A stretch of 64,000 nucleotides of DNA from Pseudomonadota bacterium (GTDB taxonomy: Bacteria > Pseudomonadota > Gammaproteobacteria > SURF-13). A program made the position numbers and the translations under genes. The stretch spans positions 11,800 through 75,799 of the forward strand of contig JAQBXX010000003.1 of assembly GCA_027624315.1 (NCBI GenBank). The letters run 5' to 3'. The notes beneath the pieces are model-generated. The model saw only the letters and a program-made list of their open reading frames with translations. It had not been told where the DNA came from and made no database searches. Below, in pieces: positions 5,525 to 63,641 of this stretch (position 1 is its first letter; each line of letters opens with the position of its first letter).

Positions 5525-5826
5525 TCGCCTTGTCGGATTTTCTAGTGCTGAGCGCAATCCTGTTTTGCCTCAGCATGGCGGGCATTTTTCTCAACCGCAA
5601 GAATGTGATTATCCTGCTGATGGCCATCGAACTCATGCTGCTCGCGGTCAACATGAACTTTGTTGCCTTTTCGCATTACCTCGGCGATGACGCCGGACAA
5701 ATTTTCGTCTTCTTCATATTGACCGTGGCCGCCGCGGAGTCGGCCATCGGCCTCGCGATACTGGTGGTGCTGTTCCGCAACCGGCGCGCGATCAATGTCG
5801 AAGACATGGGCAGCCTGAAGGGGTAG
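5521..5826 (+). CDS. nuoK: NADH-quinone oxidoreductase subunit K
   Basis: 101 aa, three TM helices; 4-nt overlap with nuoJ stop. Confidence 0.9.
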
Positions 5827-5829
5827 GGG

Positions 5830-11885: not shown

Positions 11886-13736
11886 ATGACACACGTACCT
11901 TCTGCCTTCGATCCGAAAGCCTTTCTCAAGACCGTGACTGGCAGGCCGGGCATCTACCGCATGCTCGATGCTGTGGGCGGGGTGCTGTATGTGGGCAAGG
12001 CGCGCAATCTGAAGCAGCGCCTGGCCAGTTATTTCCAGCAGCGATCCGCCACGCCGCATGCCGGCAAGACACAGGTCCTGGTCGAGCAGGTGCGCAATAT
12101 CGAGGTCACCGTTACGCATACGGAGACTGAAGCACTGATTCTGGAATGCACGCTCATCAAGCAGCTCAAGCCGCGCTACAACATTTTATTGCGCGATGAC
12201 AAAAGCTATCCCTACATTTTCCTGTCGAGCAAACACGAATTTCCGCGCCTCGCGCTGCACCGTGGTGCTAAGCGCGCAACGGGACGCTACTTCGGTCCGT
12301 ACCCGGGCGCGCTCGCGGCGCGCGAGAGCCTGCATCTGCTGCAAAAGCTGTTTCAGGTACGCCAGTGCGAGGACAGCTTCTTTCGCAACCGTTCGCGCCC
12401 CTGCCTGCAGCACCAGATCAAGCGCTGTACCGCGCCGTGCGTGGGAGCCGTGAGCCAGGAGCGCTACGCGGAAGACGTGCGCCATACCGTGATGTTTCTG
12501 GAAGGCAAGAACCCCGAGGTGATCGGGGAACTGGCGGCGCGCATGGACCAGGCGGCGGAGCAGCGGGATTTTGAGCAGGCGGCACATTATCGCGACCAGA
12601 TTGCGAGCCTGCGCCAGGTGCAGGAGCATCAATACGTCAGCGGGGAGAAGGGCGATCTCGACGTGATCGCGGCGCTGGTGCAAAACGGTGTGGGCTGCGT
12701 GGAGGTATTTTTTATCCGCGCCGGACGCGCGCTCGGCAACAAGGCCTTTTTCCCGCGCCTGCCGGAAGGCGCCAGCGCAAGCGAGATGCTGGGGGCCTTC
12801 ATGCCGCAGTATTATCTCGGCAGCCACACGGGTGACGAACAGCAGATCATCCCCGCCGCAATGATTACCCAACCGCCGTTGGAAGACGCAGACTTGCTGG
12901 AGCAGGCGTTGAGCAGCAAGGCCGGGCGCCGCGTGACTATTTCAAGCAGCGTGCGCGGCGCGCGTGCGCGCTGGCTGCAACTCGCGCAGACCAACGCGGA
13001 GCATGCGCTGGCGCAACAACTGGCCAGCAAAGGCCATATGAACGAACGCTTCGATGCCTTGCGCGCAGCATTGCAGCTTGACCACACGCCCGGCCGCATC
13101 GAGTGTTTCGACATCAGCCACACCCAGGGCGAGGCCACCGTGGGGTCGTGCGTGGTATTTGACAGCCAGGGCCCGCTTAAATCCGCCTACCGGCGCTTCA
13201 ACATCGAAGGCACACCACCGGGCGACGACTACGCCGCCATGCAGCAGGCCTTACTGCGCCGCTATACCAGACTCATGCAGGGCGACGGCATTCTCCCCAA
13301 CATCCTGTTCATCGACGGCGGGAGAGGGCAGGTGGCCGAGGCTGTGCGTGTGCTGGAGGAGTTGCAGATCACCGGCGTGACGATAGTCGGTATCGCCAAG
13401 GGCGAGGGGCGCAAGGCGGGGCTGGAATCCCTCATCGTGGCACACCGGCGCACACCACTTCGGCTACCACCCGATGCGCCTGCCCTGCACCTGATTCAGC
13501 AACTGCGCGATGAGGCGCACCGCTTTGCCATCACCGGACACCGCAAACAGCGGGGCAGGGCGCGCACCACTTCCACGCTGGAGGGCATCCCCGGCATCGG
13601 GCCGCGCCGCCGCCGCGAGCTGCTCAGCCAGTTCGGGGGCTTGCAGGGCGTATCACGTGCCGGGGTGGAAGACCTCAGCCACGTGCCGGGCATCAGCAAA
13701 CAGCTTGCGCAGAAGATATACGATGTGTTTCATTAG
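11886..13736 (+). CDS. uvrC: Excinuclease ABC subunit C
   Basis: 616 aa; GIY-YIG N-terminus (GIYRMLDAVGGVLYVGKARNLKQRL), UvrC C-terminal HhH region; conserved uvrC-pgsA-tRNA synteny. Confidence 0.95.
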   Translation: MTHVPSAFDPKAFLKTVTGRPGIYRMLDAVGGVLYVGKARNLKQRLASYFQQRSATPHAGKTQVLVEQVRNIEVTVTHTETEALILECTLIKQLKPRYNILLRDDKSYPYIFLSSKHEFPRLALHRGAKRATGRYFGPYPGALAARESLHLLQKLFQVRQCEDSFFRNRSRPCLQHQIKRCTAPCVGAVSQERYAEDVRHTVMFLEGKNPEVIGELAARMDQAAEQRDFEQAAHYRDQIASLRQVQEHQYVSGEKGDLDVIAALVQNGVGCVEVFFIRAGRALGNKAFFPRLPEGASASEMLGAFMPQYYLGSHTGDEQQIIPAAMITQPPLEDADLLEQALSSKAGRRVTISSSVRGARARWLQLAQTNAEHALAQQLASKGHMNERFDALRAALQLDHTPGRIECFDISHTQGEATVGSCVVFDSQGPLKSAYRRFNIEGTPPGDDYAAMQQALLRRYTRLMQGDGILPNILFIDGGRGQVAEAVRVLEELQITGVTIVGIAKGEGRKAGLESLIVAHRRTPLRLPPDAPALHLIQQLRDEAHRFAITGHRKQRGRARTTSTLEGIPGIGPRRRRELLSQFGGLQGVSRAGVEDLSHVPGISKQLAQKIYDVFH

Positions 13737-14354: not shown

Positions 14355-14429
14355 GCGGGAATAGCTCAGTGGTAGAGCACAACCTTGCCAAGGTTGGGGT
14401 CGCGAGTTCGAATCTCGTTTCCCGCTCCA
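14355..14429 (+). tRNA. glyW: tRNA-Gly (anticodon GCC)
   Basis: GCGGGAATAGCTCAGTGGTAGAGCA...CTTGCCAAGG...GGTTCGAATCT...CCCGCTCCA; cloverleaf by eye; anticodon loop ctGCCaa. Confidence 0.93.
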
Positions 14430-14448
14430 TAATTCAATGATTCAGCAC

Positions 14449-14522
14449 GGCTGGGTGGCAGAGTGGTCATGCAGCGGCCTGCAAAGCCGTGTACGCCGGT
14501 TCGATTCCGACCTCAGCCTCCA
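14449..14522 (+). tRNA. cysT: tRNA-Cys (anticodon GCA)
   Basis: GGCTGGGTGGCAGAGTGGTCATGCA...CCTGCAAAG...GGTTCGATTCCG...CAGCCTCCA; anticodon loop ctGCAaa. Confidence 0.92.
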
Positions 14523-14550
14523 TTATCCCTCGCTATTACCCTCTCATAAT

Positions 14551-14637
14551 GCCCGGGTGGCGGAATTGGTAGACGCAAGGGACTTAAAATCCCTCGGCCT
14601 CACGGCTGTGCCGGTTCGATTCCGGCCCCGGGCACCA
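14551..14637 (+). tRNA. leuZ: tRNA-Leu (anticodon TAA), long variable arm
   Basis: GCCCGGGTGGCGGAATTGGTAGACGC...CTTAAAATC... variable arm ...GGTTCGATTCCGGCCCCGGGCACCA; 87 nt. Confidence 0.92.
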
Positions 14638-14882: not shown

Positions 14883-15428
14883 ATGTGGCGCATCGAGGAG
14901 CACCGTCGAGTCGACAAACAGCTCTCGGGAGCCGTCCCGCCCGAAATACTCAAGCGCTACGAGAAATGGAAAGACATTGCGAGTCTCTCGGGCCCGCCCG
15001 GTCTGCGCACGATCAAGGGGTTTCACGATGAAGCTCTATCGGGCGAGTGGAAGGGCCATCGATCTTCCCGACTGGGGCTTCAGTGGCGAGTGATCTATCG
15101 AGTCGTCGCGGACGTACTGTCGATCCAGGTCATTCAAGTCACCCCACACGATTACGGAGGCCCTGATATGAAAGAGTTTCGTCCTGCCAAGAAGCGAGTT
15201 GAGGTTTCTGTGGGAGAGTCTGTCCGCATCCTTCGCGAGCTCCAGGAACTCAGCCAACGCCAGCTCTCCGAACTCACGGGTATTCCTCAGGCTACTATCT
15301 CCGCCATCGAGAATGGCCGGATCAATCTGGGCGTCGAGCGGGCCAAGGTTCTAGCTCGTGCACTCAAGTGTCACCCGGCGGTGCTCGTTTTCCCGGGCTG
15401 GGAGGTTCCACTTGAATCTGCGGCATAA
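14883..15428 (+). CDS. RelE/ParE(HigB-like) toxin fused in frame to an XRE-family HTH antitoxin (single 181-aa ORF; internal SD+ATG at 15168)
   Basis: N-terminal ~94 aa ends ...GEWKGHRSSRLGLQWRVIYRVVADVLSIQVIQVTPHDY (RelE/ParE fold signature); C-terminal half MKEFRPAKKRVEVSVGESVRILRELQELSQRQLSELTGIPQATISAIENGRINLGVERAKVLARAL is a Cro/C1-type HTH; no stop between them (gat tac GGA GGc cct gat ATG). Confidence 0.7.
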   Translation: MWRIEEHRRVDKQLSGAVPPEILKRYEKWKDIASLSGPPGLRTIKGFHDEALSGEWKGHRSSRLGLQWRVIYRVVADVLSIQVIQVTPHDYGGPDMKEFRPAKKRVEVSVGESVRILRELQELSQRQLSELTGIPQATISAIENGRINLGVERAKVLARALKCHPAVLVFPGWEVPLESAA

Positions 15429-15497: not shown

Positions 15498-15831
15498 CAT
15501 GATTCAGGAAACTATTGGCAGAATCGAAGACAAAATTAAAAAAACCAAATTGATGCAGGGAGAAAACAAGGATGAGCTGCTGCATCTGGTGGCAGAGCTA
15601 AAGAGTGAAGTAATGGCACTTTCCAAAACACATCCGGAACAAGCCGAAAGCATTGCCGGCTTTGCAGATATTTCCGCACATGAAGCCGTGAGGGATGTGA
15701 GAAACCCAGACCTGTCCAAGCTGTCAACCGAAGGATTGCTGGCCTCCGTGCGCGAATTCGAGCAATCTCACCCGCGACTGGTTAGCATTGTTAATGTCAT
15801 CAGCAACACCCTGTCAAATATGGGAATTTAA
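15498..15831 (+). CDS. Small coiled-coil protein, probably DUF4404 family
   Basis: ATG at 15498 preceded by GGAG 9 nt upstream; C-terminus ...EFEQSHPRLVSIVNVISNTLSNMGI resembles the conserved DUF4404 C-terminal motif; lower GC than flanks. Confidence 0.55.
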
Positions 15832-15919
15832 GACTAGGAAATCCACCAGCAATCACTGCGATGGTGAAGGCGGAGGGAAGAGAATGATGGGTTTGCGAAC
15901 GGTGCGGGCTTGTGGGATG

Positions 15920-16126
15920 TCAAATGTAAGGCCTGACCCTAGTGTTTCTGACCCTAGTGTTTCTAGTAGTAGTGTTTCTAGTTTCTAGTGTTTCTAGTAG
16001 TGTTTCTAGTAGTGTTTCTAGTGTTTCTAGTGTTTCACGTAGTGTTTCACGCGGGATGGTTTTGCATTCGTGTTGCAGCAGTGAGTCTGCCTCCTTGCCC
16101 AGGAGTTGGCTGATGCGGTCGATCAT
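15920..16126 (-). CDS. Hypothetical 68-aa ORF whose C-terminal two thirds are encoded by the tandem repeat (…RETLRETLETLETLLETLLETLETRNTTTRNT…)
   Basis: ATG at 16126 preceded by GAGG 7 nt upstream; non-repeat N-terminus MIDRISQLLGKEADSLLQHECKTIP; may be spurious. Confidence 0.25.
   Translation of the reverse strand: MIDRISQLLGKEADSLLQHECKTIPRETLRETLETLETLLETLLETLETRNTTTRNTRVRNTRVRPYI
15934..16050. repeat. Degenerate tandem repeat array, ~10 units of (TAG)n-TGTTTC / GACCCTAGTGTTTC (7-15 nt units)
   Basis: Direct reading: tgaccctagtgtttc x2, tagtagtagtgtttc, tagtttc, tagtgtttc, tagtagtgtttc x2, tagtgtttc x2, acgtagtgtttc. Confidence 0.9.
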
Positions 16127-16274
16127 GCGGACACCTCGTTTATCTGGACGGGCTGCGGTAATGCGGGTCTATCCAGCAGCGCGGCGGTTTTTCATCGGAA
16201 GGGAATACGAGCTCAGTCTTGTCAAACGATGCAGGCTCCGGCATTTCCTCGCCGACATGGCTGCTTAGGTGGGT

Positions 16275-16466
16275 TTATTTTGCGCAGCTACGGTCAGAAT
16301 CTTCCGTGAAAGCCTGCGTGCCTATGTAGTAGGTGTTTTGGTAAGTCTGATACTGCTGTAAACCCCACAGGCCGGCAGCAATCACCAATGCGAGGAATAG
16401 TGCCCGGTAGTTCCGCGCGAGGGAGGAGAGGCTGGACGTCCGGGCGAAGGTCTGGGTGCTGAACAT
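16275..16466 (-). CDS. Hypothetical small membrane protein (63 aa, one TM helix)
   Basis: ATG at 16466 with GAGGTG SD 4-5 nt upstream; hydrophobic segment ALFLALVIAAGLWGL; immediately downstream of srkA. Confidence 0.4.
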   Translation of the reverse strand: MFSTQTFARTSSLSSLARNYRALFLALVIAAGLWGLQQYQTYQNTYYIGTQAFTEDSDRSCAK

Positions 16467-16549
16467 AATTCACCTCATGCAGGGCTCGTCTCGCCATACT
16501 ACCCCCCATCCGTGAGCCGCTACAAGCATCTAAGCATTGGGCCCTTTGA

Positions 16550-17542
16550 TCACGCGGGCGCGAGAGGCGGCTCATCCATCAGCGCCACCTGCTCGCGCAG
16601 TTCGAGGATGCGATCCTGCCAGTAGCGCTGGGTGTTGAACCAGGGGAAGGCGGCGGGGAAGGCGGGGTCGTCCCAGCGCCGGGCCAGCCACGCCGAGTAG
16701 TGAATCAGACGCAACGTGCGTAGCGCCTCCACCAGATGCAGTTCACGCATATCGAAATCGCAGAAATCCTCGTAGCCGGCGAGCACGTCGCCGAGCTGGC
16801 GCTGCATCGAGGAATGATCGCCTGAAAGCAGCATCCACAAATCCTGTACGGCGGGCCCCATGCGGCTGTCATCGAAGTCGACGAAATGCGGGCCGTCATC
16901 GGCCCACAGTACGTTGCCGGCGTAGCAGTCGCCGTGCAGGCGCAATATGCGCACCTTACCGGCGCGCGCATAACAACTGCGCACGCCGTCCAGCGCCTGC
17001 GCCACGACGCTCTGCCAGGCATCCATCAGGTCCGCAGGAATGAAGCCGTGCGCGAGCAGGTAATCGCGCGGTTCTTCGCCGAAGCTTGCGATGTCCAGTG
17101 TGGGCCGGGCAAGAAATGGCCGCACCGCGCCGACCGCGTGGATGCGCCCGATAAAGCGGCCCATCCATTCAAGAGTGGTGCGATCATCGAACTCGGGCGC
17201 ACGACCGCTTTGCCGCGGATATACGGCGAAACGAAAGGCCCCGAAGCTGTGTAGCGTCTGTTCACCAGCGAGAACCAGCGGGGCCACGACCGGTATCTCG
17301 TGCTCGACGAGCTCATGCACGAACGCATGCTCTTCCAGAATGGCGGCGTCAGACCAGCGTCCGGGACGATAAAACTTCGCCACCATCGGCGGGCCTTCAT
17401 CCATGCCGGCTTGATAAACGCGGTTTTCGTAACTGTTGAGGGCGAGCAGGCGTCCGTCACCCCTCAATCCCACACTCTCCAGCGCATCGAGCACGCAATC
17501 CGGCGTGAGCCCCGCATAGGGCGTGGTTTCGGTGATATCCAA
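16550..17542 (-). CDS. srkA: Stress response Ser/Thr protein kinase SrkA (YihE/RdoA family)
   Basis: 330 aa; strong similarity to E. coli YihE along whole length (LNSYENRVYQ, FYRPGRWS, LRLHGDCYAGNVLW, GPAVQDLWMLL, PWFNTQRYW); TTG start 10 nt after higA stop. Confidence 0.88.
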   Translation of the reverse strand: MDITETTPYAGLTPDCVLDALESVGLRGDGRLLALNSYENRVYQAGMDEGPPMVAKFYRPGRWSDAAILEEHAFVHELVEHEIPVVAPLVLAGEQTLHSFGAFRFAVYPRQSGRAPEFDDRTTLEWMGRFIGRIHAVGAVRPFLARPTLDIASFGEEPRDYLLAHGFIPADLMDAWQSVVAQALDGVRSCYARAGKVRILRLHGDCYAGNVLWADDGPHFVDFDDSRMGPAVQDLWMLLSGDHSSMQRQLGDVLAGYEDFCDFDMRELHLVEALRTLRLIHYSAWLARRWDDPAFPAAFPWFNTQRYWQDRILELREQVALMDEPPLAPA

Positions 17543-17552
17543 GGGCAGCCTG

Positions 17553-17927
17553 CTAGGCCGCGCGCCGTAACGGATATTTTTGTATCAGTACGTCGGCCGG
17601 AATATTCAATCCTTCCGACAGGCGGCGCACCATCTCCAAGGTAAGCGGGCGTGTACGGCCCAGTATCTCTGCAACCCGTCCACGGCTACCGATGCAGGGT
17701 TCCAGGTCTTTACGAGTCAATCCTCGTGTTTCCATCACATAGTGCAGGAAGTCAATCGGATCAGGGTCTGGGATGGGGTAGTGCCTGGCCTCGTAATCGG
17801 CAATGAGCAGCGTCAGCACGTCCAGCCGGTCGGCTTGGGGAGTGCCGGCCTTTGCCGCCCACAGCGCCTCGGCCTCTTTGAGAGCGGCCTTATAGTCACG
17901 TTTACTCTTGATCGGTTTCAGTTCCAT
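17553..17927 (-). CDS. higA: HigA-family antitoxin (C-terminal HTH)
   Basis: 124 aa; C-terminal HTH GLTRKDLEPCIGSRGRVAEILGRTRPLTLEMVRRLSEGLNIPADVLI typical of HigA; directly downstream of higB. Confidence 0.8.
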   Translation of the reverse strand: MELKPIKSKRDYKAALKEAEALWAAKAGTPQADRLDVLTLLIADYEARHYPIPDPDPIDFLHYVMETRGLTRKDLEPCIGSRGRVAEILGRTRPLTLEMVRRLSEGLNIPADVLIQKYPLRRAA

Positions 17928-17942
17928 TTTGTTTGCACCTCG

Positions 17943-18236
17943 TTAAATCGTGCTCGCATCTATCCTTGCGTATTGCTGGTGTGTGCCGACAAAGCGGATA
18001 AACATCAGGCCACGGTTGTAATGCACGGCCACCACCAGCCGGTAGTCATTGCCCTTAATGTTGAATACCACGCGGTTATCGGCCAGGAAGCTTGCATTGC
18101 GATAGGCGGCCTTAATGTCAGCCGGGCTTTTCCAATGGGCGCGACTCGCATCGGCATACCAGCTACGCAAAGGGATTTCCGCCTGTGGGTGCTTTTCCCA
18201 AAACTCGCGCAACCTCGACAGGGCAATAATCCGCAT
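17943..18236 (-). CDS. higB: HigB-family mRNA interferase toxin
   Basis: 97 aa; similarity to E. coli HigB (…FNIKGNDYRLVVAVHYNRGLMFIRFVGTHQQY); toxin gene upstream of antitoxin as in higBA. Confidence 0.8.
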   Translation of the reverse strand: MRIIALSRLREFWEKHPQAEIPLRSWYADASRAHWKSPADIKAAYRNASFLADNRVVFNIKGNDYRLVVAVHYNRGLMFIRFVGTHQQYARIDASTI

Positions 18237-18307
18237 GCATCAATTTACCATGTTCCCACTATGGGAGCAACACGCCAGACGAACATGATGGACGTACACC
18301 GTATATT

Positions 18308-18335
18308 ACTTAACATAATATACATTATACGAAGT
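18308..18335 (-). other. dif: dif-like chromosome dimer resolution site (XerC/XerD target)
   Basis: Reverse complement ACTTCGTATAA-TGTATA-TTATGTTAAGT vs E. coli dif GGTGCGCATAA-TGTATA-TTATGTTAAAT: central 6/6, XerD arm 10/11, XerC arm 7/11; in AT-rich spacer at the point where gene orientation converges. Confidence 0.7.
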
Positions 18336-18367
18336 ATTATTAATAAGTAAGTTAATAAATACAATAA

Positions 18368-19144
18368 CTAGGGAGATACTTTAAAAAGTCTTATAAAGTT
18401 ACTGGAGGTGGCCTCTTCGACTGCCGACAGAGGGATATTACGCACCTCGGCAATGCGCTCGGCGACGTGGCGCACATAGGCAGGCTGGTTGGTCTTGCCC
18501 CGTTTCGGAACCGGGGCGAGATATGGGGAATCGGTTTCGATCAACAGGCGGTCAAGCGGCATCCGCGCGGCGACGTCGCGCAGGGTGTGGGCACTGTTGA
18601 AGGTGACAATGCCGGAAAACGAGATGTAGAAATTGAGCGCCAGCGCCGCCTGGGCCATTTCCCAGTCTTCGGTAAAGCAGTGCATCACGCCGCCTGCCCG
18701 CTCGGCACCCCCCTCGCGCAGGATACGCACGGTGTCTGCCTTAGCCTCGCGGCTATGCACAATGAGGGGCTTGCCGACGCGCAGCGCAGCGCGGATATGA
18801 GTGCGGAAGCGCTCCTGCTGCCAGCCAACGTCACCTTTGCAATGGTAGTAGTCGAGGCCGGTCTCGCCGATGGCGACGATCTTGGGATGCTGCGCCAGCG
18901 CAACCAGCTCATCCACTGTCGGTTCGCGGCACTCGCGTTCATCGGGGTGCACGCCTACGGAGGCATAGATGAAGGGGTATTGCTCGGCGATAGCGAGCAC
19001 CGCGGGAAAGGTTTCGAGATTTACGCAGACACTCAGCAGTTGCTCCACGCCCTGCTGCCGTGCGGTCTGGAGGACATGGTCGAGATCCCCTCCCAGCGCG
19101 TCAAAATCGAGCCGGTCGAGGTGGCAGTGCGAATCAATCAGCAT
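18368..19144 (-). CDS. tatD: TatD-family metal-dependent DNase (YcfH)
   Basis: 258 aa; MLIDSHCHLD N-terminus and conserved TatD motifs; synteny holB-pilZ-tatD. Confidence 0.9.
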   Translation of the reverse strand: MLIDSHCHLDRLDFDALGGDLDHVLQTARQQGVEQLLSVCVNLETFPAVLAIAEQYPFIYASVGVHPDERECREPTVDELVALAQHPKIVAIGETGLDYYHCKGDVGWQQERFRTHIRAALRVGKPLIVHSREAKADTVRILREGGAERAGGVMHCFTEDWEMAQAALALNFYISFSGIVTFNSAHTLRDVAARMPLDRLLIETDSPYLAPVPKRGKTNQPAYVRHVAERIAEVRNIPLSAVEEATSSNFIRLFKVSP

Positions 19145-19153
19145 ACCCTTGTG

Positions 19154-19528
19154 CTACAGGGTGTTTGTTGCACGCTCGGCCTGCAACAGCCCGGCGAGAT
19201 AGCCCTCAATCTTGCTGCGCGTGGAGCCGCCGTCTATCTCGCTGAACTGCACGCCGATGCCGGCGGGGCGATTTCCCTGCGCTCCCTTGGGAGTGAGCCA
19301 GACGATGCGACCGGCGACAGGCAGTTTTTCTGTCTCATCCATCAGCGTGAGCAGAATAAACACCTCGTCACCCAGCTGGTAGGCCTTGGCGCTGGGAATG
19401 AACATCCCGCCGTTCTTGATAAACGGCATGTAAGCGGCGTATAGCGCGCCCTTGTCCTTGAGTGACAGCGACATGATGCCCTGTCGTCCCGTCGCAGGTG
19501 CGGGTTTGGGTGCTTCAGCCATGTGCAA
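19154..19528 (-). CDS. pilZ: Type IV pilus assembly PilZ-domain protein
   Basis: ~120 aa; LSLKDKGALYAAYMPFIKNGGMFIP matches Pseudomonas PilZ; conserved tmk-holB-pilZ-tatD order. Confidence 0.85.
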   Translation of the reverse strand: MHMAEAPKPAPATGRQGIMSLSLKDKGALYAAYMPFIKNGGMFIPSAKAYQLGDEVFILLTLMDETEKLPVAGRIVWLTPKGAQGNRPAGIGVQFSEIDGGSTRSKIEGYLAGLLQAERATNTL

Positions 19529-19584
19529 TACTCTACGCTTATAAGCTTAACAAACTATAACAAGAAATCGTGCCAATACACTAA

Positions 19585-20622
19585 TTATGCAGGCTGGGAT
19601 GAAACCGCGGCAGTGTCCACCGCCCAGCCGATCAGGGCATCCTCCAGCAGGGATTGAGCATTTACCTGGGTCGACAGCAGCCGTAGCGCATCCTGCGTCC
19701 GCTCCAGATGGCGGTATAGCACGCTCAACTCAGTCCGTTGGGAAATGCGCTGGAGCTGGACATCCAGATCGCAATTTTTAAGGCGCGGGTGATGCGAGGC
19801 TGATTTCAAGCGAATCATGTCTGCGATAAATCCGAACAGCCACTCGACACAATCCGTGGCGCCCCACTCCACCCACGCCGCTGCGCGGCTGACCGGATCG
19901 GCCAGCCCGCGTTGCAGGCCGTCCAGGTCTTCGAGCATGGCGGCGCGATGTAACGGCATGCCGTTGTGCGCGAGCGTGATTGCCTTGAGCGGTGCACCAT
20001 CGGCAAGCGCGAGGAGTTGCGCCGCATCGTGCGTAATGCCTAGACGTTCACTCAACCACGGCAGCGCGAGATCAGCCGGCGGTAGTGTGAAATTCATCCG
20101 CTGACACCGGCTGCGTACTGTGGCCGGCAGCGCGGCGGGGCGGCTCGTGATCAGCATCAACAACGTATGTGCCGACGGCTCTTCAAGTGTTTTGAGCAGG
20201 GCGTTGGCAGCGGAGGCATTCATGCGGTCGGCGGGCCACAGAGCGGCGATTTTATATCCCTCGCCGTGACTCTTGAAGGCGAGAGACGCGTTCAGTTCAC
20301 GTATCTGGTCAATGAGGATGGACTTGCCCTCCTCCACGGGCGTGATCTTCTGGTAGTCGGGATGCGTGCCCGCCCGAAATAGCAGGCAGGGGCGGCAAGC
20401 CCGGCACGCCTGACCATCGGGGGCAGGCTGCGCGCACAACAGCGCCTGCGCGAAAGCGGCGGCAAAGTGCTGCTTGCCCACTCCGCGCATGCCGCATAAC
20501 AAAAGTGCGTGCGGTAGCCGCCCGCTTGCGCGCCACGCAAGCATCTCCTGCCAGCGCGCGTGCTGCCAGGGCAGGATTTGCGCAGCATTGCCGGGGGTTA
20601 CGCCGGAGATTGCATCAGTCAC
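19585..20622 (-). CDS. holB: DNA polymerase III subunit delta'
   Basis: AAA+ clamp-loader motifs (HALLLCGMRGVGK, LKTLEEP); likely GTG start at 20622 overlapping tmk stop (GTGACTGA); longer track ORF starts at 20688. Confidence 0.85.
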   Translation of the reverse strand: MTDAISGVTPGNAAQILPWQHARWQEMLAWRASGRLPHALLLCGMRGVGKQHFAAAFAQALLCAQPAPDGQACRACRPCLLFRAGTHPDYQKITPVEEGKSILIDQIRELNASLAFKSHGEGYKIAALWPADRMNASAANALLKTLEEPSAHTLLMLITSRPAALPATVRSRCQRMNFTLPPADLALPWLSERLGITHDAAQLLALADGAPLKAITLAHNGMPLHRAAMLEDLDGLQRGLADPVSRAAAWVEWGATDCVEWLFGFIADMIRLKSASHHPRLKNCDLDVQLQRISQRTELSVLYRHLERTQDALRLLSTQVNAQSLLEDALIGWAVDTAAVSSQPA

Positions 20623-21241
20623 GCGTGATCTCGTCGAGCGCCTGACCGATCTGCGCCTGCACGGTGGACAACTCCTGCGCGGCATCAATCACGCGGTAGC
20701 GCCCGGGGTGTAGCGCGGCCTGCCGCAAATAGTTGTCACGCACACGCTCGAAAAATGCGAGTTGTTCGCTCTCGAAGCGGTCATGCGTTGTGCTGCGCCG
20801 CCCGGCACGCTCCAGTCCGAGCGCCGGGGGCAGATCAAGCAACAACGTGAGGTCAGGCCGCAGTGGGCCTTGCAGCCACTCTTCGAGTTGCGCGATGCGC
20901 TGTTGCGCGATGCCGCGCCCGCCGCCCTGGTAGGCGTAAGTCGCTTCAGTGAAGCGGTCGCACAGTACCCACTGGCCTGCGGCGAGTGCGGGGTTGATCA
21001 CGCGCGCGAGGTGTTCAGCGCGCGCGGCAAACATCAACAACAGTTCAGTATCCACGGCCATACCGTCATTGCGATGACTGAGCAACACGTCACGGATTTG
21101 CTCGCCGAGTAGCGTGCCGCCGGGTTCGCGCGTCACCACGATGTTCTTTTTTGCATTCAGCAGATGTTGCTTGATGAAGGCGATATTGGTGCTTTTGCCC
21201 GCGCCCTCAATACCCTCCATGGTGATGAAACGTGCCGTCAT
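20615..21241 (-). CDS. tmk: Thymidylate kinase
   Basis: 208 aa; FITMEGIEGAGKST P-loop, DRF motif. Confidence 0.93.
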   Translation of the reverse strand: MTARFITMEGIEGAGKSTNIAFIKQHLLNAKKNIVVTREPGGTLLGEQIRDVLLSHRNDGMAVDTELLLMFAARAEHLARVINPALAAGQWVLCDRFTEATYAYQGGGRGIAQQRIAQLEEWLQGPLRPDLTLLLDLPPALGLERAGRRSTTHDRFESEQLAFFERVRDNYLRQAALHPGRYRVIDAAQELSTVQAQIGQALDEITRD

Positions 21242-22278
21242 TATTGTGCTGCCTCCGTCGCAGGGTAATTACCGCCGAGTTGATGTTTGACCACGGCGCG
21301 ATTGTGCTGCTCCAGCGTCGCGGAAAACACGTGGCCGCCGTCGCCGCGCGCGACAAAGTACAGCGCGTCACCGGGCGCCGGATGCAGCACGGCATGAATG
21401 GCGTCTGCGCCGGGCATGGCGATGGGGGTGGGCGGCAGTCCGGTGTGCATGTAGGTATTGTAAGGTGTATCGGACTCAAGATCACGGCGGCGCAGGTTGC
21501 CGTCAAACGACGGCCCCATACCGTAGATTACCGTCGGGTCGGTTTGCAACGGCATGCCTATCCGCAAGCGCCGCACAAACACGCCCGCAATCAGCGGCCG
21601 CTCACTCGCAAGCCCGGTTTCTTTTTCTACGATGGAGGCGAGTGTCAACGCTTCATCGGGCGTGCGTAGCGGCAACCCCGTGCTGCGATTCTGCCACTCC
21701 TGCTGTAGGCGCTGATCCATGGCGCGGTAGGCGCGCTGCAGGAATGCAACGTCGGTAGTGCCCTTGGGGAAATGATAGGTGTCGGGATAAAAACGCCCTT
21801 CCGGATGCTGCCCCGCAAAACCCAGCTTCACCATGATCTCGCGATCGTCTAGGGCGGACAGCGTGTGGCTCAATTTTTCATGCCGCTCTATCGCATCCAT
21901 CAACTGACGGAAGCTCCAGCCTTCTACCAGCGTGAGCGCATACTCGATTACCTTGTCGCTGGCTAACTGATCCAGCAGTTGTGACGGTGTGGTGCCGGGC
22001 GCCAGTGTGTACTCGCCTGCGCGGACGTTACGGCCCTTGTTCTGTAGATACGAAAGCCAGACGAGGTATGAGGCGTGAGACAAGACGCCACGTTGCTGCA
22101 AATCGTGTGCGATCTTTTTCAGCGTCATGCCGGGAGCGACCTCATAGCTCATGTCGCTGCCCCCTGTATTGAGAGGTGTCGTGGTGAAACGGTAATATTC
22201 CACGCTGGCCCATAACGCTGAAAAAAGCAGAATGGCGAACAACGCCGCACCGGGTGATTTCAACAGGTAGCTTAGCAT
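21241..22278 (-). CDS. mltG: Endolytic murein transglycosylase MltG (YceG)
   Basis: 345 aa, N-terminal TM, YceG-like domain; synteny pabC-mltG-tmk. Confidence 0.88.
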   Translation of the reverse strand: MLSYLLKSPGAALFAILLFSALWASVEYYRFTTTPLNTGGSDMSYEVAPGMTLKKIAHDLQQRGVLSHASYLVWLSYLQNKGRNVRAGEYTLAPGTTPSQLLDQLASDKVIEYALTLVEGWSFRQLMDAIERHEKLSHTLSALDDREIMVKLGFAGQHPEGRFYPDTYHFPKGTTDVAFLQRAYRAMDQRLQQEWQNRSTGLPLRTPDEALTLASIVEKETGLASERPLIAGVFVRRLRIGMPLQTDPTVIYGMGPSFDGNLRRRDLESDTPYNTYMHTGLPPTPIAMPGADAIHAVLHPAPGDALYFVARGDGGHVFSATLEQHNRAVVKHQLGGNYPATEAAQ

Positions 22279-23087
22279 GGGATCATAAGGTCATCGACGT
22301 AAACTGCGATGCGACGCGTGAGCAGCCCAGGTGAAAGTTGAACGCCGTCGAGTTCACGCACCGGCCATACGCCGATCACACTATTGCATAAAAATACTTC
22401 ATCCGCATTCTGCATATCGCTTAATGTGAGGTCAGTGACCGCGCACTCCACTCCAGGCTGCTCCATTATCAGGCCGCGCACTATGCCCGCAATGCCGCAG
22501 CGCGATACGTCCGGTGTATATAATTTTCCGTCACGCACCACAAACACATTGCTCATCGTGCCCTCGATGACGCAATCCGCGGCATCCAGCATCAAACCCT
22601 CGGGAATATCGGCGTCGCTCCACTCATTGCGTGCGAGCACCTGTTCGAGGCGATTCAGGTGCTTGATGCCGGCCAGCACGGGATTGAGGCCGAGACGCGT
22701 GGCACAGACGCGCACGCGCACGCCATGTTGCGCAAAATCTTCGGGCCACGAGGCCCACGGGTACAGCGCCAGTATACGGGTTGCGGGCACGGGCGTGGTC
22801 ATGCGATAGCCGCGCGCGCCTGCTCCGCGCGTGATGATGATCTTGAGCACGGCTTGCGCTGCGCTGCTTGAAGTACAGACCTGACGTGCCTCGGCTTCGA
22901 GCATAGCCGTGTCGGGTGGCGTGATGCCAAGGCGCGCACAGCCCGTGGACAAGCGCTGCATGTGCCTGTCCCACAACAACGGCACGCCTGCGCGTACCGC
23001 CAGCGTCTCAAACACGCCGTCGCCGTAATGCAGGCCGCGATCCTGCGCGCTGATCTGTGTTCCCGCTGCGCCGTTGATGAGTATCAT
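22272..23087 (-). CDS. pabC: Aminodeoxychorismate lyase (class IV aminotransferase fold)
   Basis: Real start MILINGAAG... at 23087 (ATGA overlap with pabB stop); track ORF has spurious 138-aa Arg-rich extension. Confidence 0.85.
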   Translation of the reverse strand: MILINGAAGTQISAQDRGLHYGDGVFETLAVRAGVPLLWDRHMQRLSTGCARLGITPPDTAMLEAEARQVCTSSSAAQAVLKIIITRGAGARGYRMTTPVPATRILALYPWASWPEDFAQHGVRVRVCATRLGLNPVLAGIKHLNRLEQVLARNEWSDADIPEGLMLDAADCVIEGTMSNVFVVRDGKLYTPDVSRCGIAGIVRGLIMEQPGVECAVTDLTLSDMQNADEVFLCNSVIGVWPVRELDGVQLSPGLLTRRIAVYVDDLMIPC

Positions 23088-24445
23088 GGCGCGCTGCCCA
23101 GCGCCCCCAGCAGGCCGCGCGCCTTGGCGCGCGTTTCTTCCAGTTCGCGTTGCGGATTGGAATCGGCGACGATACCGGCGCCGGCGCGCAGGCTGATGTC
23201 GTCGCCCTCTTTCACCAGGGTGCGTATCAATATATTGAAATCCATGTCGCCATCGTGGTTGAGATACCCCATGGCACCGGTGTACGCGCCGCGCGGTTCG
23301 CGCTCCAGCTCGGCGATGATCTCCATGCAGCGCACCTTGGGGCAGCCGGTGATGGTGCCACCGGGAAACACCGCGCGCAACACCTCGCCCGGCGTGGTGC
23401 CCGGGCGCAGTTCGCCATGCACGCCGGAGACGATATGATGCACGTGCGCGTAGCTTTCGACGCTCATCAAGTCGTCCACGCGCACGCTGCCGGGCACGCA
23501 CATGCGCCCCAGATCATTGCGTTCGAGATCAATCAGCATGACGTGCTCGGCACGCTCTTTCGGGTGCGCGAGCAATGCCGCGGCATCGGGCCCGTCGTTG
23601 CTGTGGTTTTCGCGCCGTGGCCGCGTACCGGCGATAGGACGGGTTGCGACCACGCCGCCGCGCACCAGCACCAGGCGTTCCGGTGACGAGCTGATGATGG
23701 CGCTCGCTCCATGGCACGCAAGACCGGCGAAGGGTGCCGGATTATGTTCGCGCAGGCGCCGGTAAATCTGGGCGGCGTCGATGGGCGCCCGAAAGCGGCC
23801 GCGCCATAGCCGCGACAGATTCACCTGAAACACGTCGCCCTCGCGGATATAGCGCAGAATGCGTTCAACACCGTCGAGAAACTCCCGCGGCGCATCTTCC
23901 TGCAACGTGATGCCGGGCCAGGTCACCTGCGCCGCACTCGCGTCTTTTTCAAGGGTGGCGATATCCTCGCGCATGCGCACAAGCAAATCCTCGCTGCCCG
24001 GCTCGGCGATCAGGTGCATGCCTTGGGTGGTGTGATCGCGGACGATCGCGGCCGGGATGCGTGTGGCAAACGCTACCGGTAATCCGGATCGTATCTCAGG
24101 CAAACACAGGCTTGGCTCGATCTGCGCGGCGAGTTCGTAGCCGAGATAGACAAACCAGCCGCCGCGGAATGGCAGCGCCGCTGCGGCGGCGGCGCGGGGT
24201 TGCTGCTCGGCTGACCACCAGCGGTCCAGTTGCGCGAGGAAATCCGTGCCCTCTACAGCCGGGCCGCGCAGCGTGGTGAGATCGGCAAGCTCCAGCGTGG
24301 CGCCAGGGAAGGCGAACAGGATGTCATAACGCGCCGCCGCTGTGCCGTGCACCACGCTTTCCAGCAAATACGGATAGCGCGCGGGGTTGAGGGCGTGCAG
24401 CGCCAGCAGGTCGCAATCGCTGTCCGGTGCGCAGTGATCGGCCAT
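23084..24445 (-). CDS. pabB: Aminodeoxychorismate synthase component I
   Basis: 453 aa; chorismate-binding enzyme motifs (IAGTRPRR, LIDLERNDLGR, PGGTITGCPKVRCMEII, GAYTGAMGY); coupled to pabC. Confidence 0.88.
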   Translation of the reverse strand: MADHCAPDSDCDLLALHALNPARYPYLLESVVHGTAAARYDILFAFPGATLELADLTTLRGPAVEGTDFLAQLDRWWSAEQQPRAAAAAALPFRGGWFVYLGYELAAQIEPSLCLPEIRSGLPVAFATRIPAAIVRDHTTQGMHLIAEPGSEDLLVRMREDIATLEKDASAAQVTWPGITLQEDAPREFLDGVERILRYIREGDVFQVNLSRLWRGRFRAPIDAAQIYRRLREHNPAPFAGLACHGASAIISSSPERLVLVRGGVVATRPIAGTRPRRENHSNDGPDAAALLAHPKERAEHVMLIDLERNDLGRMCVPGSVRVDDLMSVESYAHVHHIVSGVHGELRPGTTPGEVLRAVFPGGTITGCPKVRCMEIIAELEREPRGAYTGAMGYLNHDGDMDFNILIRTLVKEGDDISLRAGAGIVADSNPQRELEETRAKARGLLGALGSAP

Positions 24446-24447
24446 CG

Positions 24448-24557
24448 TTACTCAGGAGACACAAAGTATGGATACACGCTGCCCAAGTGTCTCCTGAGTA
24501 AAAACAGTATTAACCCTACCCCCACCCTGTCCCGCCCCCTAAACAGGGGGCGGGGAC
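24448..24557 (+). repeat. Double-hairpin intergenic repeat element, family 1, copy A
   Basis: 15-bp perfect stem ttactcaggagacac/gtgtctcctgagtaa (loop 24 nt) followed by GC-rich hairpin gtcccgccccct/agggggcggggac; near-identical inverted copy at 30676-30786. Confidence 0.85.
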
Positions 24558-24614
24558 GTGTCGGAGAGTGCATCCTTGATAATAAACTCATGCGTAACCA
24601 GCCGCTGACGGAGT

Positions 24615-25868
24615 TCAGCGCAGCCGGTTGAACACCAGCGTGCAGTTGGTGCCGCCGAAGCCGAATGAGTTCGACAGCACCGCGTCGATCTTCATCTGCC
24701 GCGCGCTGTGCGGCACGTAATCCAGATCGCACTCCGGATCGGGCGTGAGCAGGTTGATCGTCGGAGGCGCCACCTGGTCGCGCAGCGCGAGCACGCTGAA
24801 CACCGCCTCGATGCCGCCCGCCGCGCCGAGCAGATGGCCGGTCATGGACTTGGTGGAGCTGACCGCCATCTTGCAGGCATGCGCGCCAAAGGCGCTTTTG
24901 ATGGCAAGCGTCTCGGCCTTGTCGCCCGCCGGCGTGGAGGTGCCGTGCGCATTGATGTAGTCAATCGACTCCGGCGCGAGGTGTGCGTTGCGCAGCGCGT
25001 GCTGCATGCAGCGCTTGGCGCCCTCGCCGCCTTCCGCGGGCAGCGTCATGTGGTAGCCGTCGCCGCTCATGCCGTAGCCGGTGAGTTCGGCGTAAATCTT
25101 TGCGCTGCGGCGTTTGGCATGTTCGTACTCTTCCAGCACCAGCACGCCGGCGCCGTCGCCCAGCACGAAACCGTCGCGCTCCTTGTCCCACGGGCGGCTC
25201 GCGCTGGCGGGGTCGTCGTTGCGCGTGGACAGCGCGCGCGCGGCACAGAAGCCGCCGAGGCCGGTAGGTGAAGTCGCCATCTCGGCGCCGCCTGCGACCA
25301 TGACGTCGGCGTCGCCGTACTCGATGATGCGCCCCGCCTCGCCGATGTTGTGTGAGCCGGTGGAGCAGGCGGTGACGATGGCGATGTTCGGCCCCTTCAT
25401 GCCGTATAGGATGGAGACGTGGCCGGAGATCATGTTGATGATATTGCTCGGCACGAAGAACGGCGAAATCTTGCGCGGCCCGCCTTCGAGATAGGCGCTG
25501 TGGCCCTTCTCGATGCCGGGCAGCCCGCCGATGCCGGAGCCGATGGCGACACCGATGCGGTCGGCGTTTTCGTCGGTGACGACCAGACCCGCGTCTTCAA
25601 CCGCCTCCTTTGCCGCCGCGATGCCGTAATGGATGAACGGATCCATTTTTTTGACATCCTTGGCGGGCATGTAGTGCGCAGGATCAAAGTTCTTCACGCT
25701 GCCGCCAAAACGGGTCGCAAAGGCCGCAACATCGAAATGGGTAATCGGGCCGATGCCGCTCCTGCCGGCCAGGATATTGGCCCAGGATTCCTGTACGGTG
25801 AGGCCGACCGGCGATATCATGCCGAGCCCCGTGACCACCACGCGACGTTTACTCACGCTTGACCTCAA
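24615..25868 (-). CDS. fabF: 3-oxoacyl-ACP synthase II
   Basis: 417 aa; KAS II active-site regions; fab cluster synteny. Confidence 0.95.
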
Positions 25869-25940
25869 CCATGTGTGTCAAAGATATAAAAACAAAGGCC
25901 GCCCATAAGCATGGAGCGGCCTCATAGCTGGACGGGCGTC

Positions 25941-26183
25941 CTAGGCAACAGCGGATTGGGATTTGATGTAATCAACGGCCTGCTGGACGGTAGTGATCTT
26001 TTCTGCGGACTCATCCGGTATCTCGCATTCGAATTCTTCTTCGAGTGCCATCACCAGCTCCACGGTGTCGAGGGAATCAGCGCCAAGATCATCGACAAAG
26101 GCAGACTCGTTGCTCACCTCTTCTTCCTTGACCCCCAACTGCTCAATTACGATTTTCTTGACGCGTTCTTCGACGGTGCTCAT
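25941..26183 (-). CDS. acpP: Acyl carrier protein
   Basis: 80 aa; [20 protein letters not shown] phosphopantetheine site. Confidence 0.97.
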
Positions 26184-26317
26184 GACGGATACATCCTCCC
26201 AACATTGATGAAATTGCTTGAACGGCTGGCGCTATTTTATTGGAAACCGGGTGATTAGGCCACAATCACCGCCAACGTAATGAAACTAAAAGAAAAAGAA
26301 TCCCGGGCGGCGGGCCT

Positions 26318-27061
26318 TCACGCCATATACATGCCGCCGTTCACGTGCAGCGTCTCGCCGGTGATGTAACCCGCCGGCGGCGAGGCCAGGAAGGCCACCA
26401 CGGCGGCGATCTCCTCCACGCTGCCCAGGCGCTTGAGCGGTATCTGCTGTAACAGCGCGGTGCGTTGATCCTCCGGCAGTGCACGCGTCATGTCAGTGTC
26501 GATAAACCCCGGGGCGACCGCGTTCACGGTGATGCCGCGCGACCCCACCTCGCGCGCCAGCGCCTTGGTAAAGCCGAGGATACCGGCCTTGGCAGCGGCA
26601 TAATTGGTCTGCCCCGCATTACCGGCGGCGCCCACCACCGACGAGATGCTGATGATGCGCCCACGCCGCGCCTTCATCATCGCGGGGAGGCACGCCTTGG
26701 ACAGACGATACACCGAGTTCAGGTTGGTGGCGATGATCTCCTCCCAATCGCTGTCCTGCATGCGCATGAGCAGGCCGTCACGGGTGATACCTGCGTTGTT
26801 GACCAGGATGGAGGGTGCGCCGAAGGCCGGCTCTACCGCGGCGAGCAGCGCCGCTACCGACGCCGGATCGGTCACGTTGAGTATGCATCCTGTACCTTTA
26901 ATTTCTTTATTTTTCAATATATTGCTTATTGAATCTGCACCACTTTGTGAAGTTGCGGTGCCAATGACCACCGCCCCCTGCCGCCCCAATTCAAGGGCAA
27001 TGGCCTGGCCGATACCGCGGCTTGCGCCGGTCACCAGGGCGACTTCGTTACTTAAACTCAT
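26318..27061 (-). CDS. fabG: 3-oxoacyl-ACP reductase
   Basis: 247 aa SDR; TGASRGIG, YAAAKAG motifs. Confidence 0.95.
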   Translation of the reverse strand: MSLSNEVALVTGASRGIGQAIALELGRQGAVVIGTATSQSGADSISNILKNKEIKGTGCILNVTDPASVAALLAAVEPAFGAPSILVNNAGITRDGLLMRMQDSDWEEIIATNLNSVYRLSKACLPAMMKARRGRIISISSVVGAAGNAGQTNYAAAKAGILGFTKALAREVGSRGITVNAVAPGFIDTDMTRALPEDQRTALLQQIPLKRLGSVEEIAAVVAFLASPPAGYITGETLHVNGGMYMA

Positions 27062-28008
27062 GCGGGTTCTCCTTCTTGTGTCACGGCGGCAAGTGCTGCG
27101 GCTAGTGTCGCCGGATCATACAGCGGCAGCGTCTTCATCTCCGGCGCGATGCGCTTGTTCAGGCCCGCGAGCACCTTGCCCGGCCCGCATTCGACCAGCA
27201 CGTCCACGCCTTTCTGCGCCAGCGCCTGAATCACCTCGACCCAACGCACGGGCTGGTACAACTGGCGCGTGAGTCCGTCGCGGATGGACGCAGCGTCTCT
27301 GTAGGCCGCGGCATCGACGTTATTTATTACAGGAATACGCGGCGTCTGAAGCGAAGTATTGCGCAGGCGCTCACCGAGGTGCTCCGCCGCAGGCCGCATC
27401 AATGCACAGTGCGATGGCACGCTCACCGGCAACAGCAGCGCGCGTTTGGCGCCCGCCTGTTTGGCGAGTTCCAGCGCACGCGCGACGGCGGCGCTCTCCC
27501 CCGCCACCACCACCTGCCCCGGTGAATTGAAATTGACCGCTTCGACCACCACCCCCTGCGCGGCCTCGGCGCACACGGCGCGCACCTTGGCGTCATCGAG
27601 GCCGAGGATCGCTGCCATGGCACCGCTGCCTTCCGCCACCGCCGCCTGCATGAATTCGCCGCGCCGGGCGACGAGATCGATGGCGCTGCCAAACTCCAGC
27701 GCCCCGGCGCAGACCAGCGCCGTGTACTCGCCCAGGCTGTGACCCGCCAGATATGCGGGCTGCGCTCCTCCGCGCGCCTGCCAGACGCGCCAGGCGGCGA
27801 CACCGGCGGCGAGCATCGCGGGCTGCGTTTTGCAGGTGAGATTCAAGTCCGTTTCCGGACCCTGTTGCACCAGCGCCCACAGGTCATAGCCCAGCACGCG
27901 CGAGGCCTCGGCGTACGTCGCCTCTATCTCTGCATGGCTCTGCGCCAGTTCCGCCAGCATGCCGATGGACTGCGAACCCTGGCCGGGGAAGACAAATGCG
28001 AGCGTCAT
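27058..28008 (-). CDS. fabD: Malonyl-CoA-ACP transacylase
   Basis: 316 aa; GHSLGEY active site. Confidence 0.95.
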   Translation of the reverse strand: MTLAFVFPGQGSQSIGMLAELAQSHAEIEATYAEASRVLGYDLWALVQQGPETDLNLTCKTQPAMLAAGVAAWRVWQARGGAQPAYLAGHSLGEYTALVCAGALEFGSAIDLVARRGEFMQAAVAEGSGAMAAILGLDDAKVRAVCAEAAQGVVVEAVNFNSPGQVVVAGESAAVARALELAKQAGAKRALLLPVSVPSHCALMRPAAEHLGERLRNTSLQTPRIPVINNVDAAAYRDAASIRDGLTRQLYQPVRWVEVIQALAQKGVDVLVECGPGKVLAGLNKRIAPEMKTLPLYDPATLAAALAAVTQEGEPA

Positions 28009-28020
28009 AGTGTTCAGGCA

Positions 28021-28209
28021 CCTCTAAAAATGCGTCTTTTGCTCCAATACTGCGTTGCAGCTTGTCTCCGCTGCTCACATACTGGCGTGTATGCTGTGCT
28101 GCACATGGATGTGCGAATGTCGCGGGCGCAGGACGCGCAGGAGCGACCGCTGCTCGACGGCGCTGCGCCTTGTCTTGAAGCAAAATCCATCATTTTTAGA
28201 AACGCCCGC
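28021..28209 (+). mobile_element. MITE-like repeat, family 2, copy 1 (~189 bp, terminal inverted repeats CTCTAAAAATG.../...CATCATTTTTAGA)
   Basis: ~95% identical to 41000-41186; termini are reverse complements of each other; fills entire fabH-fabD intergenic spacer; no coding capacity. Confidence 0.85.
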
Positions 28210-29166
28210 TTAATACTTCAGCAACGCCGAGCCCCAGGTGAACCCCGCACCGAACGCCTCCAGCAGCAAGGTGTCGCCGCGCTGAATGCGGCCGTCGCGC
28301 ACGGCGGTGTCGAGCGCAAGCGGCACCGACGCGGCAGAGGTGTTGCCGTGCTTGTCCACGGTGACCACCACGCGCTCCATCGGCATGCCAAGTTTTTTGG
28401 CGGTGGCGCTGATGATGCGGATGTTGGCCTGATGTGGAATGAGCCAGTCCACATCGGATTTCTGCAGCTGATTCGCCGCCAGCGTTTCATCCACAATGCG
28501 GTCCAGCGTGTTCACCGCCATCTTGAAGACTTCATTACCCTGCATGGTGACATAGGCACCGCTCGGAGCGTCGGCGATATCCTCGGTGGTCAGTAAATGA
28601 TGGTAGTGCCCGTCGGCGTGCAGGTGCGTGGAGAGGATGCCCGGCTCGCTGTCCGCCTGCACGATCACCGCACCCGCACCGTCGCCGAACAAGACGCAGG
28701 TGTTGCGGTCCTTCCAGTCCACAATGCGTGAAAAAATCTCGGCCCCGACCACCAGGGCGCACTGCGTTGAACCGCTGCGGATGAATTTGTCGGCAATGCC
28801 CAGCGCATAGACGAATCCGGTGCACGCCGCCTGCACGTCAAACGCCGCGCCGCCGCGGATGCCCAGACGCTGCTGTAACAGGCACGCGGTGCTGGGAAAG
28901 AGTTTGTCGGGCGTGGTGGTGGCGACGATGATGAGATCAATGTCCGCGGGCTGTATACTAGCCGCCGCTATGGCCTGGCGCGCGGCGTGCTCGGCGAGAT
29001 CGCAGGTGGTTTCCTCTGCGGCTGCAATGTGGCGCTCACGAATGCCGGTGCGTTCGACGATCCACGCATCCGAGGTCTCCACCATCTTTTCGAGATCGGC
29101 GTTGGTCAGTATCTTGTGCGGCAGATAACCGCCGGTGCCGCGAATGCGCGCGTAGGGATTGTTCAC
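28210..29166 (-). CDS. fabH: 3-oxoacyl-ACP synthase III
   Basis: 318 aa; KAS III motifs (CTGF..., HQAN). Confidence 0.95.
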
Positions 29167-40999: not shown

Positions 41000-41186
41000 C
41001 CTCTAAAAATGCGTCTTTTGCTCCAATACTGCGTTGCAGCTTGTCTCCGCTGCTCACATACTGACGTGTATGCTGTGCTGTACAAGGACGTACGAATGTC
41101 GCGGGCGCAGGACGCGCAGGAGCGACCGCTGCTCGCCTGCGCTGCGCCTTGTCTTGAAGCAAAATCCATCATTTTTAGAGACGCCC
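41000..41186 (+). mobile_element. MITE-like repeat, family 2, copy 2
   Basis: ~95% identical to 28021-28209, same orientation; fills entire msbA-lpxK spacer; right end abuts TTAA containing msbA stop codon; flanked by gacgcc direct repeat. Confidence 0.85.
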
Positions 41187-44056: not shown

Positions 44057-44241
44057 GTTGCGTTACCTGCACCTTACGTGTGGGATGTGGTGGCTATTGT
44101 AGTATATCTTTAACATAGTGACATAAATCGTAGCGAGCGGCTTTCAGGCGGGGGCGGTGGAGCGCAGGAACCGGAGTGTACATAGAAGTACATGAGGATT
44201 CCGAGCACCGCACGCACCCGCATCAAAGACGCGCAGTAGAT

Positions 44242-59952: not shown

Positions 59953-59978
59953 AGAAAATCCTCTTGGTATAACCAGCG

Positions 59979-60605: not shown

Positions 60606-60623
60606 GGCTGACTCCAGACTTAC

Positions 60624-61028: not shown

Positions 61029-61037
61029 ATAATCCCG

Positions 61038-61397: not shown

Positions 61398-61492
61398 TCA
61401 ACCATTCTCGCTCTGAGTAATAACACCCTTGAAAAACCAGTCAGTATACGCACTCAGGTAGCAATAATCAAACTATCTGCTATCTGCCGCGC

Positions 61493-61606: not shown

Positions 61607-61666
61607 AAAAATTCTCCACACTACAATCTATACATGGTGCTATGTATGGATGGACGATCCGGCATC

Positions 61667-63639: not shown

Positions 63640-63641
63640 GT

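Follow-up and report, generated by a model that had tools for sequence, protein, structure and literature searches.

Among the described systems closest to the locus studied here is the dif site of E. coli (GGTGCGCATAATGTATATTATGTTAAAT). The two have in common a length of 28 bp, an 11-6-11 architecture, an intergenic setting of low GC content, genes that converge on the site, and the presence of xerD in the genome. They are identical at 23/28 positions (XerC arm 7/11, central region 6/6, XerD arm 10/11). While E. coli dif differs in the XerC arm, the arm described here belongs to the ACTTCGYATAA class of beta- and other gammaproteobacteria. The predicted dif of Thiobacillus denitrificans (ACTTCGCATAATGTATATTATGTTAAAT; PMC2731167) is identical to our site at 26/28 positions, and the chromosomal dif of Acinetobacter baumannii (TGTTCGTATAATGTATATTATGTTAAAT; PMC10132070) at 25/28. 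The Acinetobacter site is alike in having a T at position 7. At position 27, on the other hand, both of these dif sites have an A, where our site has a G.

Other described systems share part of this organization. P1 loxP is, like dif, a core site at which a tyrosine recombinase resolves replicon dimers. In loxP, however, perfect inverted arms of 13 bp enclose a spacer of 8 bp, and the enzyme that cuts it is Cre; in our site, the arms are imperfect and 11 bp long, and the spacer is 6 bp. The attachment sites of IMEX and the pdif modules of Acinetobacter belong to the same core sequence class as our site, and a toxin-antitoxin pair adjoins our site as well. Unlike IMEX and pdif modules, our site lacks both a second flanking site and the hallmarks of a phage or module, and it is kept in relatives that do not have the adjacent block of genes.

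The site and its recombinase

The window, i.e., the whole stretch of 64 kb analyzed here, carries at 18308–18335 on the minus strand the 28-bp sequence ACTTCGTATAATGTATATTATGTTAAGT, which we parse as ACTTCGTATAA-TGTATA-TTATGTTAAGT (Table 1). The arms are palindromic at 8/11 positions, and the GC content is 21% in the site, compared to 32% in the spacer around it and 60% in the window. Sequence, low GC content and intergenic location, which are all found here, are also the criteria by which Carnoy and Roten (2009; PMC2731167) recognized dif sites. The original prediction had read the same 28 bp from the reverse complement, with the TGTATA center and with the same match to each part of E. coli dif, and had placed them in a short AT-rich spacer; both statements are exactly right, the spacer being intergenic.

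Table 1. Positions of the features at and around the dif site in the window.
Feature	Position	Strand	Remarks
XerC-binding arm (predicted)	18325–18335	-	ACTTCGTATAA
6-bp central region TGTATA	18319–18324	-	6/6 compared to E. coli dif
XerD-binding arm (predicted)	18308–18318	-	TTATGTTAAGT; 10/11 compared to E. coli
AT-rich intergenic spacer	18237–18367		131 bp, 32% GC; between higB start and tatD stop
TatD-family gene	18368–19144	-	stop adjoins spacer
HigB toxin	17943–18236	-	start adjoins dif spacer
HigA-like protein	17553–17927	-	in block 16275–18236
SrkA-type Ser/Thr kinase	16550–17542	-	in block 16275–18236
63-aa ORF	in block 16275–18236	-	adjacent context, outside the site
Class I fructose-bisphosphate aldolase, first ~29 codons (MIDRISQLLGKEADSLLQHECKTIPRE...)	about 16047–16130	-	abuts repeat array
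Tandem-repeat array	15933–16048		units of 9–21 bp (TAGTGTTTC and similar)
ORF, 181 aa	14883–15428	+	weak RelE/YafQ-like match (residues ~43–89) and HTH_3 antitoxin-type domain (115–167)
DUF4404	between tRNAs and site	+	
GGGNAGGG (E. coli-type KOPS), toward site	5821–5828; 13553–13560	+	
GGGNAGGG, toward site	24514–24521; 56273–56280; 57769–57776	-	
xerD tyrosine recombinase	52584–53702	-	TIGR02225, 390.3 bits (cut-off 329.6); 34 kb from site

The site is unique within the window. It is the sole match in the 64 kb to a degenerate gammaproteobacterial dif consensus with up to three mismatches, and none of 100 dinucleotide-preserving shuffles contained such a match. Scanning the whole window with the 28-mer gave no second dif-like site, and the next-best score was 17/28, which is at chance level. 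One match with this score, at 16458–16485, was considered as a second dif and rejected, as it coincides with the start of the 63-aa ORF (ribosome-binding site and ATG).

The XerC arm had been called weak, which is the case against E. coli (7/11) and not against closer counterparts, since it agrees at 10/11 positions with T. denitrificans, at 9/11 with A. baumannii and at 11/11 with two related metagenome-assembled genomes (MAGs) described below (L076 and L032). The XerD arm agrees at 10/11 positions with the conserved TTATGTTAAAT class, the one change being at the outer position 27. The same arm with the G at this position is also present in the dif of Rhodoferax ferrireducens (PMC2731167) and in L052 and L087. 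The outer positions 1–4 and 27–28 of dif have been observed to vary within species (Carnoy and Roten, PMC2731167).

The recombinase gene of the window is assigned to XerD, and the same ORF scores 308 bits on the XerC model, below the cut-off of that model. Its product matches E. coli XerD (1A0P) with E = 8e-95 and keeps the C-terminal HTLRHAFATH and LGHSDLSTTQIYTHV, the stretch which we take to hold the catalytic residues. The listed ORF probably has a spurious N-terminal extension, with the true start near 53525. XerD is the only tyrosine recombinase found in the window, in which no cre gene is present, and neither xerC nor ftsK was seen within the 64 kb.

Occurrence in other genomes and in relatives

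The inner 26-mer of the site (TTCGTATAATGTATATTATGTTAAAT, or the form ending in AAGT, the last-but-one base being A or G) occurs in at least 120 other proteobacterial species genomes (GTDB), once in each, with one exception (L120, see below). Extended to 28 bp, the variant found most often is ACTTCGTATAATGTATATTATGTTAAAT, present in 41 of these genomes, and the window differs from it only by the G at position 27. The comparison with related dif sites suggested in the original prediction thus puts our site one base away from the commonest proteobacterial variant. The exact 28-mer of the window was detected in four metagenome contigs, all from unrelated organisms.

The 26-mer lies in the middle of the chromosome, at 47–51% of its length, in five of six complete chromosomes: at 651.5 kb of 1271 kb in CP103436, 657 kb of 1307 kb in CP103442, 645.5 kb of 1359 kb in CP159827, about 657 kb of 1312 kb in CP103437, and 1451 kb of 2839 kb in NZ_CP195536 (Psychrobacter). 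In the sixth, Pectobacterium sp. PL152 (L101 2–27; NZ_CP091064, ~5,008,002 of 5,022,655), it is located 14.6 kb before the record ends; this record may not start at dnaA, or else the site may be secondary or phage-borne. Of 47 loci with 1.5 kb or more on either side, 41 had a higher GC skew to the left of the 26-mer than to its right, which is the direction of a terminus; the measure used is unchanged by reverse complementing. Across the loci of the other genomes, GGGNAGGG pointed toward the 26-mer 116 times and away from it 8 times.

Two relatives carry the site at the same place. In L076, a MAG contig with ~70% DNA identity to the window, the order is tRNAs, DUF4404, a full-length class I aldolase gene, dif, tatD, pilZ and holB. 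In the Sulfuricaulis MAG L032, uvrC, pgsA and the tRNA Gly/Cys/Leu genes are followed by dif ~125 bp past the tRNAs, with other genes beyond. Both have the site as ACTTCGTATAATGTATATTATGTTAAAT (the AAAT form), 27/28 identical to that of the window and in the same orientation relative to the tRNAs. Between tRNA-Leu and dif, L032 has ~0.1 kb of DNA; in L076 this distance reaches ~1.8 kb, and the window has 3.7 kb. With this shared place in L076 and L032, dif is a conserved landmark at an orthologous position, and the intervening DNA is variable in length. Overall, the sequence, the recurrence in other genomes, the mid-chromosome positions, the orthology and the presence of xerD in the window support the original prediction of a dif-like XerC/XerD site.

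The exception to the single copy, a methanotrophic symbiont of Bathymodiolus japonicus (L120), has two copies of the 26-mer in one block. These two dif 28-mers, at 2038–2063 and 4235–4260, are inverted and 2.2 kb apart, and their flanks are identical for at least 20 bp in both directions. Such a pair could represent a stretch duplicated in inverted orientation, or else a segment at dif that is able to invert. The proteobacterial dif 26-mer was also found in contigs labeled as Streptomycetaceae (L014) and Halobacteria (L060) MAGs, the former also with a tRNA Cys/Leu cluster resembling that of the window; these are probably mis-binned proteobacterial contigs.

Replication signals and alternative readings

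To the left of the site lie the nuo operon, DUF2818, efp (on the minus strand), uvrC, pgsA, and the tRNA-Gly/Cys/Leu genes at 14355–14637. Scaffold L125 extends this side by 9 kb beyond the left window end, with folP, glmM, a gene for a GGDEF protein, tpiA, secG and nuoA–F, where only plus-strand genes are present. To the right follow tatD, pilZ, holB, tmk, mltG, pabC, pabB, a fab cluster, rluC, msbA, xerD, rpoA, rpsD and secY. In total, at least 27 kb of mostly plus-strand genes on the left and at least 45 kb of mostly minus-strand genes on the right run toward the site. The original prediction had placed the strand switch at the site itself and all genes to its right on the minus strand, and both statements have to be corrected. 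The switch from plus- to minus-strand genes is at about 15.85–16.1 kb, ~2.3 kb to the left of the site, with the genes for HigB, the HigA-like protein and SrkA, the 63-aa ORF and an aldolase remnant on the minus strand. On the right side, ~25–30% of the coding bases are on the plus strand, according to a crude ORF map in which a few loci are mis-assigned; the plus-strand exceptions are rne, a four-gene block at 46.9–51.3 kb and a few others.

GC skew was analyzed over the window and the 9-kb left extension from scaffold L125 (73 kb in all). In 1-kb bins, the mean skew was +0.0085 ± 0.0098 on the left, where it is not significantly positive, and -0.034 ± 0.0067 on the right (p about 0.001). Within the 73 kb analyzed, the cumulative skew peaks at ~5.95 kb, and a single change point fits best at ~25.6 kb. 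The inflection is a broad plateau from ~6 to ~26 kb, compatible with a terminus at 18.3 kb without pinning it there. The skew change that had been expected near 18.3 kb was thus found as a difference between the two sides, and not as a sharp turn at this point. In published dif sites, the distance to the skew maximum has a median of 7.3 kb and a third quartile of 21 kb (PMC2731167), and the window site falls inside this range. When the coding-strand effect is removed, the replication term of the skew at third codon positions is ~+0.008 on the left and ~-0.049 on the right, a difference of ~2 standard errors. By these values, replication of the right arm clearly runs toward the site. The left arm is unlike the right one, but shows no distinct leading-strand signal of its own.

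The octamer GGGNAGGG converges on the site 10 times and diverges from it twice in the window and the 9-kb extension. A polarity switch of KOPS motifs had also been expected, and its direction is the right one, but it is no stronger than that of composition-matched G-rich octamers (277 converging vs 117 diverging). Since these controls also converge at ~70%, the KOPS polarity in the window is not independent evidence.

Considering these results, we are highly confident that the 28-mer is an ordinary chromosomal dif and a genuine XerC/XerD site. That it marks the fork-convergence region of the chromosome is likely, with somewhat lower confidence, as judged from the 73 kb available for this organism. 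The feature is of a known kind, was correctly recognized, and has nothing new for dif/Xer biology. A real dif with forks that converge elsewhere, in which the convergence of strands would reflect a local operon arrangement, is unlikely. The absence of a significant leading-strand skew on the left flank, the spread of the inflection, and the ribosomal protein and rpoA genes at 40–45 kb would fit such a situation. Against it stand the position of the site within the published distances to the skew maximum (PMC2731167), the difference in the replication-linked skew term between the two sides, and the gene orientation on the left, where at least 27 kb with the entire nuo operon are almost all on the plus strand and would otherwise be head-on to replication.

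The site could also be a real Xer target at the border of a mobile element, either an IMEX (a phage or island that has integrated) or a dif module of the Acinetobacter type with higBA and srkA, rather than the primary site of dimer resolution. A 2-kb block (16275–18236) lies directly against the XerD-arm side of dif and is absent from the syntenic L076, and toxin-antitoxin genes are typical cargo of dif modules (PMC12907356, PMC10132070). The same 26-mer is also present in 40 viral contigs (IMG/VR, L130–L169), mostly of 4–15 kb. Two of these (L144, L153) were inspected and encode Zot and G2P-type replication proteins, as in filamentous phages of the Xer-exploiting kind, which indicates that this dif class is exploited by phages elsewhere. 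However, these viral contigs have only the site in common with the window, where no phage genes (Zot, G2P/RstA) were found in 14.6–18.3 kb and the neighbors are HigB, the HigA-like protein, SrkA, DUF4404 and TatD. Together with the lack of a second dif-like site in the window (best other match 17/28), the same position of the site in relatives without the block, and the ordinary housekeeping type and native codon composition of srkA, this makes a mobile border very improbable. Even less credible, to the point of being negligible, is the view that the site serves a Cre-like recombinase of a phage or plasmid as a lox-type site, or that it is a lox scar left by engineering. The 16-nt exact run shared with loxP, which had first drawn attention to the site, is real, and the identity amounts to 23/28 within the aligned part and to 26/34 when all of loxP is counted. 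Nevertheless, the second arm matches at 7/11 aligned positions, so that perfect 13-bp inverted arms are absent, and no tyrosine recombinase other than XerD was found in the window. Environmental metagenome contigs and at least 120 wild genomes contain the same sequence, which shows that it is not engineered. The 16-nt identity had been attributed to a known relatedness of dif and lox, on which nothing explicit was found in the literature searched. A chance AT-rich palindrome, or merely a promoter or operator of higBA, is just as hard to accept. A pair of -35/-10-like elements on the minus strand (18343–18315) does overlap the site, but the promoter scan gave one match where 0.8 are expected by chance, L076 keeps the site without higBA, and an identity of 26 bases with the dif of at least 120 genomes cannot be due to chance.

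For the chromosomal dif that we favor, the function can be proposed by analogy with the family. The arm ACTTCGTATAA would be the one for XerC and TTATGTTAAGT the one for XerD, strands would be exchanged across the central TGTATA, and the reaction would be activated by FtsK once it reaches the closing septum. XerC and XerD acting at this 28-bp target would then resolve chromosome dimers joined during replication, in the region where the two replication arms would meet. The site gives a reliable landmark of the terminus region for this gammaproteobacterium, which has ~60% GC and is apparently uncultured; the Sulfuricaulis MAG is among the closest relatives recovered. Such a landmark can be used in orienting assemblies, in growth estimates from read coverage, and in spotting Xer-exploiting mobile elements.

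The cluster of rpoA, rpsD, secY and neighboring ribosomal-protein genes (58954–63977) lies 40–45 kb from the site and is oriented with the inferred replication. In fast-growing bacteria, the rpoA/ribosomal-protein/secY cluster is usually near the origin, and its presence at this distance is an unusual neighborhood for a terminus. A more elaborate proposal, which we regard as improbable, has two parts. In the first, the higBA-srkA block would be cargo that Xer recombination delivered or mobilized, leaving one recognizable site, and the dif core would serve as the higBA promoter as well, so that occupancy by XerCD could influence toxin-antitoxin expression. In the second, the rpoA/ribosomal-protein/secY cluster would lie ~40 kb from the terminus in this lineage. 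If true, this position of the cluster would mean an unusual chromosome layout.

DNA between the tRNA genes and the site

The DNA between the tRNA genes and dif contains further minor features. The 181-aa ORF at 14883–15428 looks like a toxin-antitoxin pair fused in one reading frame. At the position of the short aldolase sequence next to the tandem repeats, L076 has a full gene of 350 aa, which indicates that the window holds a truncated gene remnant.

Exact matches to proteins of the window came only from short metagenome scaffolds (52.5, 27.7, 8.6 and 3.4 kb), and the XerD ORF with its N-terminal extension gave none. The metagenome scaffold_1515 (L001) is 100% identical to the window over 15663–29144. 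From its position 13482 (window 15663), it continues with ffh, hemL, thiE, thiD and proS, and not with DUF4404 and the tRNAs. A second scaffold of the same assembly, scaffold_4436, ends at about window position 15922, at the tandem repeats. Either scaffold_1515 is a chimera of the assembly, or a strain has been rearranged next to the terminus.

Out-of-register matches of the window to the same scaffold (L001) also brought to light dispersed short repeats at 28017–28207, 41000–41186 and 44113–44257. These are ~85–190 bp long and 95–99% identical, and they may represent a MITE or REP-like family.
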